From: Methanotrichaceae archaeon
GTDB taxonomy: Archaea; Halobacteriota; Methanosarcinia; Methanotrichales; Methanotrichaceae
Reading direction: 5' to 3'
Length of the DNA stretch: 64,000 nucleotides
NCBI GenBank assembly: GCA_963813075.1
Contig: CAWEXU010000006.1
Coordinates: forward strand, 1 to 64,000
Position numbers and translations under genes: made by a program. Below, one piece after another: positions 32,918 to 47,889 of this stretch. Every line of letters starts with the position of its first letter. The stretch's first letter is position 1. The notes under the pieces were generated by a model. It was not told the origin of the DNA. It ran no database searches and saw only the letters and a program-made list of their open reading frames with translations.

Positions 32918-34388
<1,471 letters not shown>

Positions 34389-34524
34389 AAAGTTACGAGC
34401 ATGCCAAAAGGCATGCCTCTCTGAGCCAATCGGAAGCTGAAAATGTCGATCAAGACCATGAAAAGCGAATCAAAAAAAGCGAATCTATCCAGCTAATTGA
34501 TATTCATCTGCTGGGCAGGATTTA

Positions 34525-34597
34525 GGGCTTGTAGCTCAGCTGGTAGAGCGCCGCCTTTGCAAGGCGGAGGCCCTGGGTCCGAATCCCAGCAAGTCCA
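34525..34597 (+). tRNA. tRNA-Ala(UGC) in the 16S-23S spacer
   Basis: GGGCTTG acceptor stem, TGC anticodon in CCGCC-TTTGCAA-GGCGG. Confidence 0.97.
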
Positions 34598-34724
34598 TTG
34601 AACAAATGCACACATCGAGGCAGACTCGATGTGGAAGGGCTGAGGTCCGTTTCTCGCAGGAAGCGGTCCCAGGAAGCCGTGCACAAGCTTTGCGACCAGA
34701 CGCTCACTGAGTTTAGTGGGGCAT

Positions 34725-37620
<2,896 letters not shown>

Positions 37621-37741
37621 CTCCGCTAAACTCGGGCGAAATCTGGTCGCAAAGCAAAATGAGCACGGCTTATAAGCCAAGATCCCTGGACTATATGGTC
37701 AGGGTGGCATAAATACCGGTTCGATTCCGGGTCTTGGAATC

Positions 37742-37868
37742 GAGCATGGCGGCCAGAGCGACAGGGAAACTCCTGAACCCATTCCGAACTCAGAAGATAA
37801 GCCTGTCCACGTTCTGCACTGTACTCAGGTGCGCGAGCCCTCGGGAACTGTAGATCGCTGCCATGCTC
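37742..37868 (+). rRNA. rrf: 5S rRNA
   Basis: GAGCATGGCGGCC...CCCATTCCGAAC...GCTGCCATGCTC terminal stem. Confidence 0.96.
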
Positions 37869-37894
37869 ACCTAACTATCTTTTTTTTATCGCTT

Positions 37895-38177
37895 CAACTG
37901 GAGCTTGGGCTCCCTAATTGCTGTTGTCACGAATCCTACTCAGCCATGCTGCATGGTCGATCGGGCTACTGTGCGCCCGGAAGGGCCGCAAAGCGGGAGA
38001 GCTGCCATGCTCACCTAACATCTTTTTATTAGAGCTTTTTAACTGGAGCTAGGGCTCTCTTAATTGCTGTTGTCACGAATCCTACTCAGCCATGCTGCAT
38101 GGTCGATTGGGCTACTGTGCGCCCGGAAGGGCCGCAAACCGGGAGAGCTGCCGTGCTCACCTAACATCTTTTTATTG
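37895..38177 (+). repeat. Two tandem ~140-bp structured repeats, each ending in a copy of the 5S 3' end plus a T-tract
   Basis: Copies ~37896-38030 and ~38041-38176 are nearly identical; both end GCTGCC(A/G)TGCTCACCTAACATCTTTTT. Confidence 0.9.
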
Positions 38178-39025: not shown

Positions 39026-39298
39026 ATGAAACAAAAGAGAAGCCATGAAATGATCATGCAAAATATCCTGGAAGTATGTGCTCATGGTTCCGGCAAAACC
39101 AAGATAGTATATCAATGCAACCTGAACTTCACTACGGTAAATCCTTATCTGCTTCAGCTTTTAGATAACGGTCTGCTGGAGGTCAAACCCGGGGAATCAA
39201 CCTTCCAAACGACTAAAAAGGGCCTTGAGTTTATGGAGGTGCTCAAGCAACACCATGATGAGATCTCGAAGATTATTTTGCTGCTTGGAGACAATTAG
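39026..39298 (+). CDS. Archaeal winged-helix transcription regulator
   Basis: KRS..I..NIL..C..G..KTKIVYQCNLNF..YL..L..TTKKG. Confidence 0.85.
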   Translation: MKQKRSHEMIMQNILEVCAHGSGKTKIVYQCNLNFTTVNPYLLQLLDNGLLEVKPGESTFQTTKKGLEFMEVLKQHHDEISKIILLLGDN

Positions 39299-40053: not shown

Positions 40054-40575
40054 ATGAAGTTGAGCTATTGGGCCCTGCTTCTACTGGCAGGGTTCGTATC
40101 GATAGGTGTATCATTAGCCGTGGATTATTCGGTAGAGACGTCAGGAAATGTTCCATCTATATTGGTCTTTACGCCGCCAGCTGGTGGAGCAATGCCATCC
40201 CTTACTCCTGAGGCAGGCCAACCGATTACAAAAGCAGATCAGTTTAAGGTAAAATGCAACGGTCCATTCGATGTTAATGCTGTGGCTCAGCCAACTTGGA
40301 TGGCAGCCAACGGCAAAATGACCCACTGGGACACTATGTTGGGCATATATCCCGTCAACGGGAAACAACTCAACACCCCTATGCACCTGGTCGGAACCGG
40401 AACTGGTTCCTTTGGAGATAAGGACTTGGGCCAGGTTACTGTTCAGCTCCTCTCTGGCACAGGAACGCCGGAGACTACTTACAGCTTCGATTGGTCCCAG
40501 ACCGTATCGTGGTCTGATTACCCTGACAACAACTATAAATTGGATGTCATATTCGGTTGCCAAAGGGTTGTGTGA
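40054..40575 (+). CDS. Secreted beta-rich protein, pilin/WxL-like (paralog A)
   Basis: GGAGGT SD, signal peptide, no membrane anchor, C-terminal NYKLDVIF strand; aligns with 41642-42205. Confidence 0.75.
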   Translation: MKLSYWALLLLAGFVSIGVSLAVDYSVETSGNVPSILVFTPPAGGAMPSLTPEAGQPITKADQFKVKCNGPFDVNAVAQPTWMAANGKMTHWDTMLGIYPVNGKQLNTPMHLVGTGTGSFGDKDLGQVTVQLLSGTGTPETTYSFDWSQTVSWSDYPDNNYKLDVIFGCQRVV

Positions 40576-40718
40576 ATCAAAGTTCATTGCTGAGGTGGAC
40601 AAGACATTTGCCTAACAGGGCCGCGATTAAATCCGTTGCATGTATCCGGATGAAATTTCGTGGCCCTTCTAAATATTTCATAATTACTACTAATAAATTT
40701 ATAAGGGGGCCATTCAGA

Positions 40719-41531
40719 GTGCGAAGATCTAAATGCAGTCTAATTAATTTAATAGCAATCTTTGTATCGATAAGTTTAGCCAACGGATTTGGCGTCACCG
40801 GAGATCTCATAGAAGATACCATTCCCGCCGGTGGGCATATATCTCATGAGATTATTGTGAATACTAGTGCTACCGAAGGACAATCCAACTTCTTCATAGA
40901 AATTATGGGAGTAGATATGGACCCAGACGGGATAATGACTGCCATCAAAGCAAATAAAGACAACAATCCTAACTCTGCAAGACCTTTTCTATCGATTTCC
41001 CCGGTCAGTTTCCTTCTAGGACCTGGTGAGTCTCAAAAACTTCTATTGGAAGGTGATGTTCCCAGCGATGTCGGCTCAGGTACCAGGTATGCTATGGTGG
41101 AGATATTATCTAAACCCATCGGCTCCAATGAATCAGAACCAAAGATGAGCGCAATGGGAGCCATTAATGCAATAGTTATAATACATATCTCTGGAACAGA
41201 TCAGATTATGACGGGAGAGATCTCTGATCTAAAGATAGAAAAACCAATTTCTACTAAAGTGCAAAATATATCCCTGAATTTCGAGAATACCGGAAACACC
41301 CATTTCAAGGCACTGGTTAAAGCTGATCTGCTTGATGAGATGGGAGAAGTATTGGCAAGCACCTCTACCCCTTTGAGCAGAGCCTCTATATTTCCCGGTG
41401 TTTCCAGGCTCTTTAAGTTTGCTATCACACCTGATGAGGAGTTAAAACCCGGAACTTACTCTCTAAATGCCACGGTAAATCTAGGGGATGAAAGCGTCCT
41501 AGCTACCAAGGTGGTGGAATTCAAGATCTAG
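40719..41531 (+). CDS. Secreted two-Ig-domain protein resembling pilus chaperones / WxL-interacting (DUF916-like) proteins
   Basis: Likely GTG start at 40719 with signal peptide; ISP.SF.LGPGESQK, ENTGNTH, IFPG.SR.F, LKPGTYSLNATV. Confidence 0.7.
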   Translation: MRRSKCSLINLIAIFVSISLANGFGVTGDLIEDTIPAGGHISHEIIVNTSATEGQSNFFIEIMGVDMDPDGIMTAIKANKDNNPNSARPFLSISPVSFLLGPGESQKLLLEGDVPSDVGSGTRYAMVEILSKPIGSNESEPKMSAMGAINAIVIIHISGTDQIMTGEISDLKIEKPISTKVQNISLNFENTGNTHFKALVKADLLDEMGEVLASTSTPLSRASIFPGVSRLFKFAITPDEELKPGTYSLNATVNLGDESVLATKVVEFKI

Positions 41532-41641
41532 CTAACCCGAATAATTAACTAAGCCACTGGGTTTGTTATCCGTGACGAACCTGGAGGATACCTTTTTTTT
41601 TAAAAAGGACAAAGGCAAATGAGGAAGAGGGAGAAAGAAGT

Positions 41642-42205
41642 ATGGGTGAGCATAGCTTTTGCAATAGGTTTGCTGTAAGCATTTATGTCTTCCTTTTCCT
41701 CTTCACCGCTCCCCTGGCAGTCTATCCTGTAAATGTCCAGGCCAATGATGGCAGCTCAAACGTTGTCATGGCGGCTCCTGGGCAGGCAGTCCCTGGCTAC
41801 ATAGTTCTGGGTGATGGACTGAAAGAGGTCTCTATCACATTTGAGGGCAATACCACTAATTGGCAACTTGACCCAATGAAATCTCCGGTCATCAATCAAG
41901 GAACCCTTGTAATAACATGTGATGGCCCGTGGAAGGTTTCAGTATCATCTGATACAGGCGGCTATATGGCAGAACACGATAACCAAAGTCAATATGTTCA
42001 TCAAGGCAAGAAGCTCATTACTCCGATGAACATAACTGCTCAAGGCGGAAACATTGTCAATCTATCCAAAGGAGGAGTCCTGATCGAGGGATCGGGCGAT
42101 AAGAAAATACCAATCGTCTTCGAGCAGGTTGTAACCTGGAAAGATCAGCCTTTGCCGCAAAATCATAGATATAAGGCGCATATTTCCTTCCTTGAAACCA
42201 TATAG
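41642..42205 (+). CDS. Secreted beta-rich protein, pilin/WxL-like (paralog B)
   Basis: Signal peptide; CDGPW, GKKLITPM, QVVTWKDQP..YKAHISF. Confidence 0.75.
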   Translation: MGEHSFCNRFAVSIYVFLFLFTAPLAVYPVNVQANDGSSNVVMAAPGQAVPGYIVLGDGLKEVSITFEGNTTNWQLDPMKSPVINQGTLVITCDGPWKVSVSSDTGGYMAEHDNQSQYVHQGKKLITPMNITAQGGNIVNLSKGGVLIEGSGDKKIPIVFEQVVTWKDQPLPQNHRYKAHISFLETI

Positions 42206-42477
42206 ATAATCCTATCATCCTGCTAATTTTGCTGCGCCATACTACAATTTAATATACCTTATAAAACAGAAATTTTTCAAGCAGACGAAATACCAGAAGA
42301 TATTGCGATCCCGAAATTACTAAGTACCTGCTGATCTTATCTCTGTTACGAACTAAATTTCTAACTTAATATACATCTATCCTTTTATTAATGGAAGTTG
42401 ACACAAATGTAGGCTTTGATATTAGCTACTCAAGCTCGATGCAGCAATATCGGAATTTCAGGCGCAGGTGGTCAATC

Positions 42478-44712
42478 ATGAACTCGAAGGCATATCGAAC
42501 TCCAACTATATTCTTCCTCCTGGCTATGGCTGCCTTCGGCCTCTCCTTGGCGCAGGATGGCAGCCCTTATTTCTCTACCGATCAGAATTCAGCAGGTGCC
42601 TCTCATGATAACGCCTGCACGATTATAGCCGACTTGCCGCAGGGAATCGTTCAGGGTTTAACCGTAACAGACACCCTCCCCAGGGGATTGATTTATGAAA
42701 GCAGCAGTCTTGAGGTCATAGGAACCGAGGTATCCCCTTTTGAGAAGGTAAGCCATCCCAATGACGGAAGCCAGCCTGTTACAATAACCTGGTACTTTGG
42801 CCGGGTGGACAACACTGCCAATCAGGACGTTTCCCTCAGGTTTCAGTCCATCGTTGCAAATGTCGTGAGCAACAAGGATGGAGAGTGCCTGGCTGCCAAC
42901 CAGGTATCCACGAGGTTCAAGGATGAGTGTGGAGAAGTTCACACAGCATTTGGTGAAACCGCTTCCTTGAAGCTTGTAGAGCCCGATCTTAAGATCGCGA
43001 TGAGTTCCCGTCCGGATGGTGGCAAAGCTGCGACCTACACCGTCTCTGTCGGTCACGCTGCCGAGAGCCATGCGGATGCCTATGGCTCTGATCTATCCAT
43101 CCTGCTGCCCGCAGGAATTATCTATTCTCCCGGATCTGCAGAGATAGTCTCCGATCCGCCGGGCGGCGGCGGTGGCGGCGTGTTGGATGACACCAATCCT
43201 CGAGAACTCCAAATTCATTTTGACGAGATCGAGCGCCGCTGGAACGAAGACAATATGATTTTATTGGAGTTCCAGGCCACTACAACTGCTGAGAATGTGG
43301 GGGACCTAAGCGAAATTATTGCCACTCTCGGCTGGAAGAGCACGTCGGAGGATAATTTCGGGACCAGGAGCTACATGACGTCCCAATCTATCCCCGTCTG
43401 CATTCCCGCCAGCATCTCGAGCTATTCGCTCAACATAAATCAGGTCGCCGGGCCGGATCCGGTCGAGGCCGGCCAAACTCTGCTCCTCGCCATAAATTAC
43501 GCCAATACAGGAAAGGATGATGTGCACAGCGTAACGATCAAGGAGATATACGACCGAAATGTTACCTATTTATCGGCAACTCCAGCAGCTGATGCAAATA
43601 AAGAGGACACATGGACGATAGGCGATCTGTTGGCCGGTGGATCAGGAACTATCAAGCTAGAAGTGAGAGTAAACCCTGATAGTTCAGATGGCGAATTGCT
43701 GACAAACTCAGTCAAACTGTCCTGTGAGGAGCAGGCTGCAGATGAAGCAATCACTGAAACGATAGTGAAAGCCAAATCGGATGAAACCGCAACAACAAAT
43801 GCTTCAATCAATAGCATCGGTAATAGCATAAATTCCACCGCCATTAATGATAGCATAGAGCTGCCGCAAATTCCGGGCAATAATACTGAAAACTCAATTC
43901 CAATTGAAAATGATACGAAACTTGATCCGGCCCCGGCGACCAATGATCTGGAAATTGTCACCACGTTCGCTAATTTGACATCGGATGCAGAACCAATCAA
44001 TGATTCATCATCGCTGGATTTAGGACTGAATGATACTAAAATCAATCCAAACGCTGATCAATTCGATGCCTTAGAAGAAGCAAGAGAGCCAACGACTGCA
44101 GAAACGCCATCTCAGGATATTATGTTCCCGTTCGTCGCAGATCTGGCAGATGATGCAGTTGGTCAGACAGGGACTAGAGAGATTTCCTCTGAGATGGAAA
44201 GCGGAAACAGAGACTTGAATCAAAGAGATCCAAATACGATCTTGGATGTTAGCATATTATCCTTTAGCAACGGCATGAAAGTCGATGTGATATTCTCAGA
44301 AAGCAGCATTGGGAGCGATAATGCTTACATAATGTCGCATGAAGAGGATGATGGCCTTAGCATGAGCAGTTCGCGAACCAACGGTTCAGACATTGTCGCA
44401 TCGTTGCTCAACGTGACCGCAATATCTGAATCTATAATAAATCAAACTCATTCGAAGGTAAATCAAACTAAATCGCTGGAGACGATACCCAAGATTGAAG
44501 TCGATGAGACAAATCCAGCCGATAATTCAAAGGATCTGTCCAATAAAGAAGCTGTGACAACTGATATTGTGGCAACTGATATTGGGGCAAATGATATTGT
44601 GGGAACAGATATGCCAGCGACAATTATTGTGGCAGATACCACGGCAACCACTCCTGAGCAAGACAAAAATTCCAAGCCGGATCGACCAGTGAGAAACCAT
44701 AAACAAGCTTAA
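42478..44712 (+). CDS. Large secreted DUF11 / isopeptide-pilin-like domain protein with an acidic, N/T-rich tail
   Basis: Signal peptide from the ATG at 42478; VTDTLPRGLIY, LVEPDLKI, PDPVEAGQTL..I.YANTG, WTIGDL. Confidence 0.78.
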   Translation: MNSKAYRTPTIFFLLAMAAFGLSLAQDGSPYFSTDQNSAGASHDNACTIIADLPQGIVQGLTVTDTLPRGLIYESSSLEVIGTEVSPFEKVSHPNDGSQPVTITWYFGRVDNTANQDVSLRFQSIVANVVSNKDGECLAANQVSTRFKDECGEVHTAFGETASLKLVEPDLKIAMSSRPDGGKAATYTVSVGHAAESHADAYGSDLSILLPAGIIYSPGSAEIVSDPPGGGGGGVLDDTNPRELQIHFDEIERRWNEDNMILLEFQATTTAENVGDLSEIIATLGWKSTSEDNFGTRSYMTSQSIPVCIPASISSYSLNINQVAGPDPVEAGQTLLLAINYANTGKDDVHSVTIKEIYDRNVTYLSATPAADANKEDTWTIGDLLAGGSGTIKLEVRVNPDSSDGELLTNSVKLSCEEQAADEAITETIVKAKSDETATTNASINSIGNSINSTAINDSIELPQIPGNNTENSIPIENDTKLDPAPATNDLEIVTTFANLTSDAEPINDSSSLDLGLNDTKINPNADQFDALEEAREPTTAETPSQDIMFPFVADLADDAVGQTGTREISSEMESGNRDLNQRDPNTILDVSILSFSNGMKVDVIFSESSIGSDNAYIMSHEEDDGLSMSSSRTNGSDIVASLLNVTAISESIINQTHSKVNQTKSLETIPKIEVDETNPADNSKDLSNKEAVTTDIVATDIGANDIVGTDMPATIIVADTTATTPEQDKNSKPDRPVRNHKQA

Positions 44713-44739
44713 GATTTCGATAGTCAGTATGAGGATGGA

Positions 44740-46938
44740 TTGAGGCAAGCCGAAATTGGTTCAAGGTTCTTGATCTTAGCTATCTTCTTCCTGAGTGCTG
44801 CCAGCTGCTCGCCAACCTTTATCTCAGAGTCGTATACCAGCTTCAGTCCCAATCCACATATCCTCCTGTCTTCCGAAACCAACCCCGCTCATGCCATTCT
44901 CAATGCGACCTCGAGTTTGCCAGAGAATGCGGAGAATGCGGAGAATACGGAGATAATCCAAAACGAATATTCTTATAAAAATCAGCAATCTCTTGATACA
45001 GCTCAGCTTATAATGACTGATAGGAGCTACCAAATAGACAAAGCTGTTTCGAACTTTATTTTATGGATAAATAAGACGGCTGATAAATCGATTTATGCAG
45101 AGGAAGAGAATGTGACTTACACTATTAAATATAAAAATAACGGTGTGAGTGCCGCCAAATATGTCACCATCATAGATGCTCTTCCCGATGTAGAAGTCGT
45201 GTCTATGTCCCCTTCCGCAGATTATGTGGCAGAAAATAACCTCACCTGGGATATCGGCACGCTAGTCCCTGGTCAGTCCGGGTCAATAACCTTAGAGGTC
45301 AAGCAGCCGAAAACTTTTAATTCAAATTTCGATGACGACTCCGGCGTCAGCGGAAATGGTTTTGTGAATATATGGAAGAGCCTTTCCACGCATGAGGAAA
45401 TCAATACTCTCTGCAATACAGCGACCATTTCTGGAATCTATGAAGATAAGCGTTATCCATCGGTGTCATCTTCTGTGACCGTCGAACTTGGCGCCAGGTC
45501 TGTAGCCAATATCAAGAACAAAGAGCATGGCAGTGGTTACTACAGAGAGTCGCAGAGCTCTAAAATCAACAACACTATCCCGAGCATAAGGCTGAAGAAG
45601 GATCTGTCTGCCAGGTATGAGCCGGTGGCATTGAGCCTGCCAGAAAATAAGGTTCAAAGGATAAGCTCAAAATGGTCAGATTGTACTTCTGCCTCGACTA
45701 ATGAAAATGGCTCTTTAAATTCAGTAGTCGATGAAAATCGCTATATGGATCTGATAAATAGGGATACATCCTATGATACAAGAAATAGTGAAATTACTTA
45801 TTCCTCCCAGGGAAATTTTTCGGGTGGAATTGCACATATTGGCTATACTAAAAGAGCCGCTGGCAGCAAGAAGGATACCACTTACATATCCGAGACATAC
45901 CATGGAAGCTTCCAAACAAAGCAATCTCTGGACTCTTTCAAAACCAGCCCCACCTATAAAAAAGAAGCATCAGGAACCGGTTTCGTCTCTTCTGAAAAAA
46001 TAGCCAGCTGCAGTCTGAGGTCGAATGAGCTGGGTAGTGGCTCCTACCAATCAGCGGAGTCCATCCAGGGCGGCTCGATCAAGAAGATCATCACTCTGGT
46101 CCATATGCCCAATAATCAGCTGGCAGGCGCATCCAAGATCAGATACGACAGCAAGTGGAGCGAGGCGATGTATGCCCTGGATACAGAAAAAGACACGGAG
46201 ATCTTGAACCGGATCAGTTCGGCAGACTATGTCCAAAAGGATGCGCTGATGAGTTCCTCTTTCTTTTCCATGACCGGCGGATTTAATGGAACGAACAATT
46301 TGAACGCCAGGGCTCTGGAAGATGCGATGAATTCCACAGGAGAATCGTTCCGGCTGGATCAGGTTCTAATAGGCAGTCTCCGGCTGGATACAACCATTGG
46401 CTTAGGCCAGTCATTAAAATATGTATATCCACATATTAATCTTACAAAGCGGGTGTTCCATCAAGATGATGATATCTTCACTTATAGAATATGGATCAAT
46501 AATGACGGAAATGAGACCCTGGGACCTGTTGTTGTAGTGGATCAAATACCGGTGGAAGCGACCTTTATTAGCTCAACTCTCAGGCCGATTGTTCAGGGAC
46601 GAATTGTAAGCTGGACACTGCAAGCTCTGCCACCCGGAGAGACGACGATAATAGACCTCAAAATTTCATTAGAGAGTATTTCTCCTGCAGTTATAAACAG
46701 GGTGCAAGCAGTCGCCAGATACCAAAATCGGACTATCCTAGCAGAAGCGGCTTCATCACCTTATGATACAATAGACGGTATGACAACGAATGAATCGATA
46801 AAATTAGAGGATGCTACTACTTATGGGGATTGGAAACCACCTTCCTGCTTTTATCTAAACTCCAGTATGACCGGTTGTGGTACGGAGATAGATGACTATT
46901 ATAATAACCTCTCTGACAATTGCAGTGATATTCCATGA
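44740..46938 (+). CDS. Large secreted protein with two DUF11 domains
   Basis: KTADK..VTYTIKYKNNG..IIDALP..LTWDIGTL.PG; second domain FTYRIWINNDG..VVDQIP. Confidence 0.8.
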   Translation: MRQAEIGSRFLILAIFFLSAASCSPTFISESYTSFSPNPHILLSSETNPAHAILNATSSLPENAENAENTEIIQNEYSYKNQQSLDTAQLIMTDRSYQIDKAVSNFILWINKTADKSIYAEEENVTYTIKYKNNGVSAAKYVTIIDALPDVEVVSMSPSADYVAENNLTWDIGTLVPGQSGSITLEVKQPKTFNSNFDDDSGVSGNGFVNIWKSLSTHEEINTLCNTATISGIYEDKRYPSVSSSVTVELGARSVANIKNKEHGSGYYRESQSSKINNTIPSIRLKKDLSARYEPVALSLPENKVQRISSKWSDCTSASTNENGSLNSVVDENRYMDLINRDTSYDTRNSEITYSSQGNFSGGIAHIGYTKRAAGSKKDTTYISETYHGSFQTKQSLDSFKTSPTYKKEASGTGFVSSEKIASCSLRSNELGSGSYQSAESIQGGSIKKIITLVHMPNNQLAGASKIRYDSKWSEAMYALDTEKDTEILNRISSADYVQKDALMSSSFFSMTGGFNGTNNLNARALEDAMNSTGESFRLDQVLIGSLRLDTTIGLGQSLKYVYPHINLTKRVFHQDDDIFTYRIWINNDGNETLGPVVVVDQIPVEATFISSTLRPIVQGRIVSWTLQALPPGETTIIDLKISLESISPAVINRVQAVARYQNRTILAEAASSPYDTIDGMTTNESIKLEDATTYGDWKPPSCFYLNSSMTGCGTEIDDYYNNLSDNCSDIP

Positions 46939-47320: not shown

Positions 47321-47435
47321 AAAACAGCAAGATACTAGCTCAAACCGTAACTAGGGATTGCGGATTACTTCCTATCGCGAATACATAAAGCATGCTGCAT
47401 TATAGACGAACGAGATCAAAGGAGAAATTTCATTC

Positions 47436-47663
47436 TCAAAGCAGATCTTGCAGCTCTTCCCTTTTTATTCCTGCATCTTCCAGAATCTGTATGAATGTCC
47501 CTCTGGCAATATTCTGGTTGCTATGGTAAGGAACTGTGACCCTTCTCTTTGTCTCCGGATGAGCAAATATATAATGGCTCCCGGTGACTCTCTTCAGTAC
47601 GAAACCTTTCTTTTCAAGAATCGCCATGACTTTCTGAGGAGTTAGAGATGGCAGCTTAGGCAT
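47436..47663 (-). CDS. hicA: HicA-family mRNA interferase toxin
   Basis: LEKKGF..RVTGSH..F.HP..VTVPYH..I.RGT..IL..AG. Confidence 0.92.
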   Translation of the reverse strand: MPKLPSLTPQKVMAILEKKGFVLKRVTGSHYIFAHPETKRRVTVPYHSNQNIARGTFIQILEDAGIKREELQDLL

Positions 47664-47889
47664 GAGCCTCCACTGTCAACCTGCACTCGATGAGATCGTC
47701 TTCCACAGGAATTGCCTCGCCGTCCTCTATCAGGCTTTCAATATAGCCAACTATTGCATCCCTGGCCATCTCAATAGCCTCTTCCACCGTCTTTCCATAA
47801 GTGATGCACCCGGGAAGTGCCGGGACAAGAACGGTATAGCCGCCTTCAGGTTCCTTACGCAGAATGATTTTATAACTTAGAGTTCTCAT
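47656..47889 (-). CDS. hicB: HicB-family antitoxin (short form, hicBA order)
   Basis: EPEGGYTVLVPALPGCITYGKTVEEAIEMARDAI; overlaps the hicA start. Confidence 0.92.
   Translation of the reverse strand: MRTLSYKIILRKEPEGGYTVLVPALPGCITYGKTVEEAIEMARDAIVGYIESLIEDGEAIPVEDDLIECRLTVEAHA

Follow-up and report, generated by a model that had tools for sequence, protein, structure and literature searches.

Usher-free assembly of pili by donor-strand exchange has been described in two bacterial settings. The Elr/WxL pilus, whose chaperone system is reported to be confined to Bacillota (bioRxiv 10.64898/2026.10.17.759780), combines a two-domain chaperone with small pilins that carry an N-terminal donor strand and with variable large partners, and the Pam pilus of candidate phyla radiation (CPR) bacteria (PMC13278184) has PapD-like chaperones, donor-strand exchange and a predicted acceptor-only tip; Csu and CFA/I pili pair a soluble chaperone with an usher. 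Among archaea, tafi (PMC11821415, PMC12337348) and threads (PMC9715654) are non-type-IV filaments that form by N-terminal strand donation and are described as chaperone-free or without identifiable chaperone. Here we describe an archaeal locus that has features in common with all of these, a cluster of five genes at positions 40,054 to 46,938 of a 64,000-nucleotide stretch from a Methanotrichaceae archaeon (GCA_963813075.1, contig CAWEXU010000006.1, positions 1 to 64,000; the window below). Chaperone-assisted strand-exchange assembly of some length is in our judgement very probable, and on balance we favor the view that the five genes build a thin strand-exchange pilus that starts at the sheath, grows at its free end and is served by a soluble chaperone.

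The genes and their relevant parts, in window coordinates, are as follows:

40054-40575, plus strand: pilin A, 173 amino acids (aa), with a signal peptide (from hydropathy), a predicted free N-terminal donor strand and a predicted incomplete immunoglobulin-like (Ig-like) domain; likely the shaft subunit.
40123..40155, plus strand: predicted donor strand of pilin A, residues 24-34, family pattern T-x-[IVL]-x-[AG]-x-V-P.
40719 (GTG)-41531, plus strand: chaperone-like gene, 270 aa, two domains, probably secreted, without membrane anchor.
41136..41174, plus strand: predicted donor strand of the chaperone, residues 139-151 of P0002, from complex contacts and column conservation.
41642-42205, plus strand: pilin B, 187 aa, with an APGQ-type N-terminal extension at ~41762-41812; likely an adaptor.
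42478 (ATG)-44712, plus strand: gene 4, 744 aa, in a frame open from 42391; two related Ig-like domains, DUF11, and an acidic tail of 309 aa that is rich in Ser, Thr and Asn and has 12 N-glycosylation sequons.
~42610-42975, plus strand: first Ig-like domain of gene 4, which by alignment is without its first strand.
44740 (TTG)-46938, plus strand: gene 5, 732 aa; two sheath-protein (SH) cores with a DUF11 on either side, then a Cys-rich tail; a putative sheath adhesin.
~45328-46308, plus strand: the two SH cores of gene 5.

P0002 denotes the chaperone-like product numbered from 40722, one codon after the GTG at 40719. A sequence-only reading of the window had called these five co-oriented open reading frames (ORFs), a signal peptide on each, and a set of motifs in A, the chaperone-like protein and B; the ORFs are confirmed, and the motifs are present in the translations. 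Each product has an N-terminal hydrophobic stretch (best 11-mer Kyte-Doolittle value 2.5-2.9), hydropathy finds no later membrane helix in any of the five (best 19-mer ≤1.37), and among the cluster ORFs there is no usher, sortase or membrane anchor, again in agreement with that reading. The strong Shine-Dalgarno sequence it had noted for A is AGGAGGT, a strong ribosome-binding site upstream of the gene; a GGGG element precedes the GTG of the chaperone-like gene.

Sequence comparison indicates that A and B are paralogues beyond chance, as had been proposed: they are 27% identical over 114 aa (E 3e-7), and their alignment scores 37 bits, whereas the best shuffle reaches 21.6 (of 300 shuffles, 290 produced an alignment). 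Neither matches a Pfam or NCBIfam family at cut-off, and PDB sequence searches with the pilins returned chance rows only, as did those with P0004 and P0005. Among Atlas clusters to which a family is assigned, those closest to A are SCPU (14% of members, 0.94) and DUF4402 (59%, 0.92). An AlphaFold2 model of A from a 53-row alignment (pLDDT 88.7) has a beta-sandwich from residue 37 onwards, with residues 23-36 unpaired and without secondary structure, and pilus or filament subunits make up 36 of the 41 matches that Foldseek lists. A wide structural search (VIA) puts CsuA/B first (Z 7.8, root-mean-square deviation 3.0, 117 residues aligned) and the CfaE pilin domain next (Z 7.5-7.7), and of the archaeal strand-donation filaments, a group comprising tafi, threads, cannulae and bundling pili, several are also among the fold neighbours of A. 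Because no match reaches a Z of 8 the fold likeness is suggestive only, and in this sense we regard A as probably folding like a pilin, its N-terminal strand left free, in line with the donor-strand subunit proposed earlier. The pilin family is large, with 2341 representatives at E 0.001. Trp72 is near-invariant among the aligned pilins and resembles the first WxL motif, which we take as a lead only. A quick pilin tree is poorly resolved, with five changes needed for B (shuffled mean 19.8), and for this reason we draw no conclusion as to a donor or the sequence in which events took place.

The 270-aa protein is predicted to bind A in the manner of a chaperone. We modeled two copies of A with the 270-aa protein on alignments of our own and scored the chaperone interface, which gives ipSAE values of 0.81, 0.81 and 0.80 as against 0.00 for the best control; the pass mark of this score is reached by 116 of 157 solved complexes and by 2 of 215 mismatched pairs. 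The runs share at least 87% of their contacts, and the partner pLDDT is at least 87. Chaperone residues 144-149 are predicted to pair with pilin residues 165-170 at a constant offset, placing the donor strand parallel to the last strand of the pilin, and chaperone residues 23-24 to contact pilin residues 38-39, pairing the first strands of both. Such geometry has been described for ElrE and for the chaperones of chaperone-usher systems, the predicted extra first-strand pairing being shared with Csu and CFA/I. The sequence-only reading had put forward a multimer prediction as a check on its proposal, and what results is a predicted chaperone-type complex with donor-strand geometry.

A profile of the chaperone gives a 98.3% alignment to a Ca. 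Omnitrophota protein whose neighbour is a 940-aa usher-like gene, its usher role being surmised from position and domains; a weak match in Deinococcus (E 0.004) has a similar neighbour, and a scan of the named genomes with P0002 yields one bacterial locus only. The Omnitrophota operon (L080:3599-9572) consists of two secreted-looking proteins, the chaperone homologue and the usher-like gene; it has no match to a Pfam pilus family and is possibly an undescribed bacterial chaperone-usher type. We considered the pilin of this locus as a relative of the archaeal pilins and rejected it, the alignment to the archaeal profile being 0.6%.

Membership in the WxL or Csu/CS1 families, to whose layout the earlier reading had likened the genes, is not upheld by hidden Markov model (HMM) searches. 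The PF13731 WxL domain occurs in 0 of 53 aligned pilins at E 0.1 and is not found in the genome itself; the cluster chaperone is below cut-off for DUF3324 (PF11797, E 0.048, 14 bits; cut-off 28.9) and unmatched by DUF916 (PF06030), and similarity to WxLIP_HBD is weak (3 of 26 chaperone-family members, best E 0.0015). In addition, 96.7% of WxL chaperones have a membrane helix, as against 0 of 37 in this family; there is no LPxTG anchor here; the large partner is a sheath protein; and genes 4 and 5 lack a pilin domain or C-terminal helix, although relatives of the cluster in other families do show a tip and base layout. In the Pam system both the chaperones and the base are anchored in the membrane, and there are two domains in each major pilin. 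With regard to Csu and CFA/I pili, there is no usher gene among the cluster ORFs (a genome-wide usher search was not made), none of the 26 chaperone-family members has a PapD Pfam row, a PDB sequence search is likewise without match, and sequence identity is 8-11%; one Atlas neighbour of the chaperone is auto-named PapD (0.94). From tafi the locus differs in that Pfam finds no TafD peptidase, DUF5305, DUF1102 or Tat pilin in six cluster-region proteins and the 53 pilins. A full-text literature search found no paper on this cluster, most subscription journals lying outside its coverage.

Judged from its cores, gene 5 belongs to the Methanothrix sheath-protein family: an HMM of its middle part matches the genome's small SH proteins, the return search with a small-protein HMM gives E values of 6e-5 and 6e-6, and hhalign joins the gene 5 cores to these small proteins at 97.8% (E 1e-12). 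On visual comparison the small proteins in turn match SH-like sequences of Methanothrix given in the PMC11576556 supplement; gene 5 has no PDB sequence match. That paper reports SH proteins in all Methanotrichales and regards proteins such as gene 5 and its fused orthologues, with SH cores and Ig-like domains, as sheath adhesins whose cap domains face outward; it detected no conserved gene neighbourhood for SH proteins, mentions no pilin or chaperone partner in the text available, and leaves sheath chaperones still to be found. A match to a sheath family had been named beforehand as grounds for abandoning the pilus. The match is there, but it leaves the pilus standing, and the SH homology of gene 5 supplies a likely anchor. 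The same reading had likened both large genes to DUF11/isopeptide pilins; DUF11 is indeed found in each, but gene 5 consists mostly of SH cores, so that the pair are not simply two isopeptide adhesins, and in the second and third domains of gene 4 the Lys position of what we take to be the isopeptide motif is occupied by Met and Gln. Elsewhere in this genome there is a small sheath-protein cluster with at least four closely related copies (L082, G000:C30:176244-189320).

Most relatives have genes 4 and 5 fused into a single protein of ~1000-1370 aa. The split is seen in this genome and one relative, each half with an apparent signal peptide, and contigs from two DNA runs, which belong to different studies and one of which is possibly the source sample, cover the stop between the two genes with no indel. 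Domain 1 of gene 4 aligns with domain 2 (97.7%) and starts one strand later. We rejected the notion that these N-terminal domains are pilus-specific, as they are matched in 88 of 101 family genomes; in 7 of 7 pilus-unlinked paralogues examined the domain is internal and keeps its first strand, and linkage to the pilus is, among the loci examined, confined to the form that lacks this strand. L092-L098 contain a sheath-adhesin paralogue of 1200-1590 aa that has this domain intact and is unlinked to pilins, and there are giant proteins of 4500-6200 aa (G058:C10:52583-58399; G022:C1:1584538-1587381; and in the L092 genome), at least two of which carry tandem copies of the gene 4 domain pair.

B follows the large gene closely. 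It accompanies that gene in all 15 of the long loci that hold B, with neither present in seven others; in five of five cases with the large gene at a distance from the chaperone, B is directly upstream, and of two other close large-gene orthologues one has B further along the cluster and one is cut at the contig start. Joint loss of B and the large gene from the seven long loci was considered and rejected, as five of the genomes hold the pair elsewhere; of the remaining two, one is this genome and one has the pair in a second cluster. The linkage, together with an APGQ-type extension unlike the A-type donors, suggests that B is likely an adaptor tied to gene 4 and not an interchangeable paralogue of A. 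A related arrangement is seen in P0149 (2241 aa), which has a signal peptide, a donor-less pilin domain 42% identical to B, an Ig array, SH cores and a Cys tail, and which is by its domain order a covalent version of B plus the large gene.

Matches to P0002 occur in 30 of 101 family genomes (one weak and broken), and in 27 of the 30 loci a pilin lies within ~1.5 kb of the chaperone, which answers to the synteny that the sequence-only reading had suggested checking; the other three comprise the weak match and two loci situated at the end of a contig. In the wider phylum a chaperone match is found in 23 of 401 genomes. The C-terminal hydrophobic segment missing from the 37 complete own-family chaperones (one row cut by the locus end being excluded) is present in 19 of 19 from other families, where it is often what we take to be PGF-like. 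In four of five wider loci from other families a nearby protein bears a C-terminal membrane helix and is likely a base, two of the five have clear tips that end in a pilin domain, and an SH core is found in none. The present genome has a second, minimal pilin and chaperone pair (L001:9168-10530; G000:C4:263173-264529). Two chaperone genes per cluster are found in L033, L037, L049 and L050, possibly subunit-specific chaperones.

The pathway we envisage begins with export of all five proteins via Sec, as their N-terminal hydrophobic signals suggest. The SH cores of gene 5 would become part of the sheath rings, with the Ig domains left exposed on the outer side, following the sheath model of PMC11576556, and the predicted chaperone strand 139-151 would be lent, in parallel, to the last strand of each pilin. 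The APGQ extension of B may fill the first-strand gap of gene 4 domain 1, as the linkage and P0149 suggest, with B thereby bridging the fibre to gene 4. Subunits of A would then be added serially, the donor strand of each taking the place of the chaperone in the groove of the subunit before it, by the chemistry of WxL and chaperone-usher systems. We infer the fibre polarity, the docking of B and the pilin-pilin exchange. In bacterial systems the acceptor-only end forms the distal tip; in the present pilus anchoring would take place at that end, and this would explain both the anchor-less chaperone and the lack of a membrane-bound base in the cluster. The function of the fibre is likely adhesion and aggregation. 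Thin 10-µm polar pili have been seen on Methanocrinis alkalitolerans M04Ac, for which a pilin gene was not found (PMC10598746), and the cluster is a candidate source of these orphan pili. That a chaperone-assisted pilus has been rebuilt around the sheath, with reversed polarity and no usher or membrane platform, and is also the 10-µm filament of M. alkalitolerans, is a combination we put forward tentatively, with the chances somewhat against it.

The alternative that survives best, though we think it unlikely, is conventional polarity, with the fibre growing from the cell side and the gene 4/5 protein as its distal tip, whose sheath cores would bind either the cell's own sheath from inside, as a cell-to-sheath tether, or the sheaths of neighbours. 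In WxL, Pam and chaperone-usher pili the distal tip is formed by acceptor-only subunits; among the 38 proteins longer than 260 aa in the best 150 pilin-family matches the domain is C-terminal in 36, in many behind adhesin-type payloads; and the split in this genome frees gene 4 with its long glycosylatable tail. Against these stand the absence from the cluster of a membrane-anchored chaperone or base, the pilin-domain genes of the genome, which at 83% completeness are A, B and one at C4 only, and the outward-facing position described for the SH cap and Ig domains (PMC11576556).

Assembly could also stop short, with the chaperone decorating sheath adhesins, in modular fashion, with a single pilin-domain protein or a few of them and no long fibre, which we hold to be more doubtful again. 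Several different A-type paralogues are present in many clusters, the complex score covers the chaperone and not A-A, and the RNA is limited to low-depth contigs in two small-share metatranscriptome runs, without a silent control and too weak for use; but the minimal pairs of one pilin and a chaperone recur (L001, L035, L039, L040), and A as modeled has a donor strand as well as a groove, as expected of a homopolymer. Gene 4 might instead be a base by donation, its N-terminal strand (Y-x-I-x-V-D-L-P in relatives) entering the groove of B and B donating to A. This strand does share the register of the A-type donor before the Pro, and bases in other families have an N-terminal strand and an anchor; however, its counterpart by alignment in domain 2 and in the intact paralogues is an internal strand, the extension of B differs from A-type donors, and P0149 has a donor-less acceptor at the N-terminus of a sheath protein, making the scheme quite improbable. 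That there is no pilus system at all, only unrelated secreted Ig proteins or sheath-assembly helpers, would suit the pilins' lack of Pfam or PDB sequence matches and the outstanding sheath chaperones, but it is scarcely credible given the complex geometry, the fold neighbours, the synteny, the usher-like gene beside the bacterial chaperone homologue, and the 71 of 101 family genomes without a chaperone match in an order where SH proteins are reported throughout (PMC11576556).

Several points weigh against the sheath-started pilus. No Foldseek match of A reaches E 0.001 or better, and the fold scores are middling, values of Z under 8 being common. The pass of the complex prediction may reflect likeness to solved chaperone-pilin complexes, and it covers the chaperone interface on alignments of our own. 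In this genome gene 4 is unfused from the sheath cores, so that its link to the sheath must be non-covalent or lost, and the fusion evidence comprises the singleton P0149 and two incomplete look-alikes, P0130 and an ORF at the contig end in L037. In one genome (G052, 84% complete) a close orthologue of the large gene is present but a chaperone match is not. The support consists of genes, homologies, linkage and a predicted fold and complex, with no fibre tied to the genes, and the passage of chaperone-pilin pairs across the sheath lacks an explanation. With matches in no more than 30 of the 101 family genomes, the chaperone cannot be a factor on which granulation depends universally.

Were the sheath-started pilus correct, chaperone-assisted pilus assembly would extend to archaea, and protein-sheath anchoring with a soluble chaperone would constitute a third usher-free route. 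The orphan pili of one Methanotrichaceae member (PMC10598746) would gain named candidate genes, and the sheath adhesins (PMC11576556) a first conserved partner set. Attachment and granule formation by a key acetate-using methanogen become directly testable.

The locus has a G+C content of 0.37-0.50 as against ~0.53 in its surroundings, and promoter and terminator scans of it, with bacterial-type models, are at chance level. Fifteen of the 24 sequencing runs listed hold at least half of the window's words; they come from bioreactor, wastewater, sediment, aquatic and biofilm samples in six studies, one possibly the source. Just before the low-GC cluster is an apparent rRNA operon (~33000-38000, judged from sequence) with a tRNA-Ala at 34525-34597, and the cluster is possibly an island. 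A winged-helix Sso10a/HTH_45 gene (39026-39298, plus strand), a possible regulator, lies upstream and is followed by ~750 AT-rich bases. On the other side, two short ORFs at ~47430-47889 on the minus strand resemble what we take to be a HicB/HicA toxin-antitoxin pair. A second copy of the segment 46997-47184 was not found in the same genome; in two DNA runs the segment has much higher depth and loose ends, indicating that it is multi-copy in those communities.

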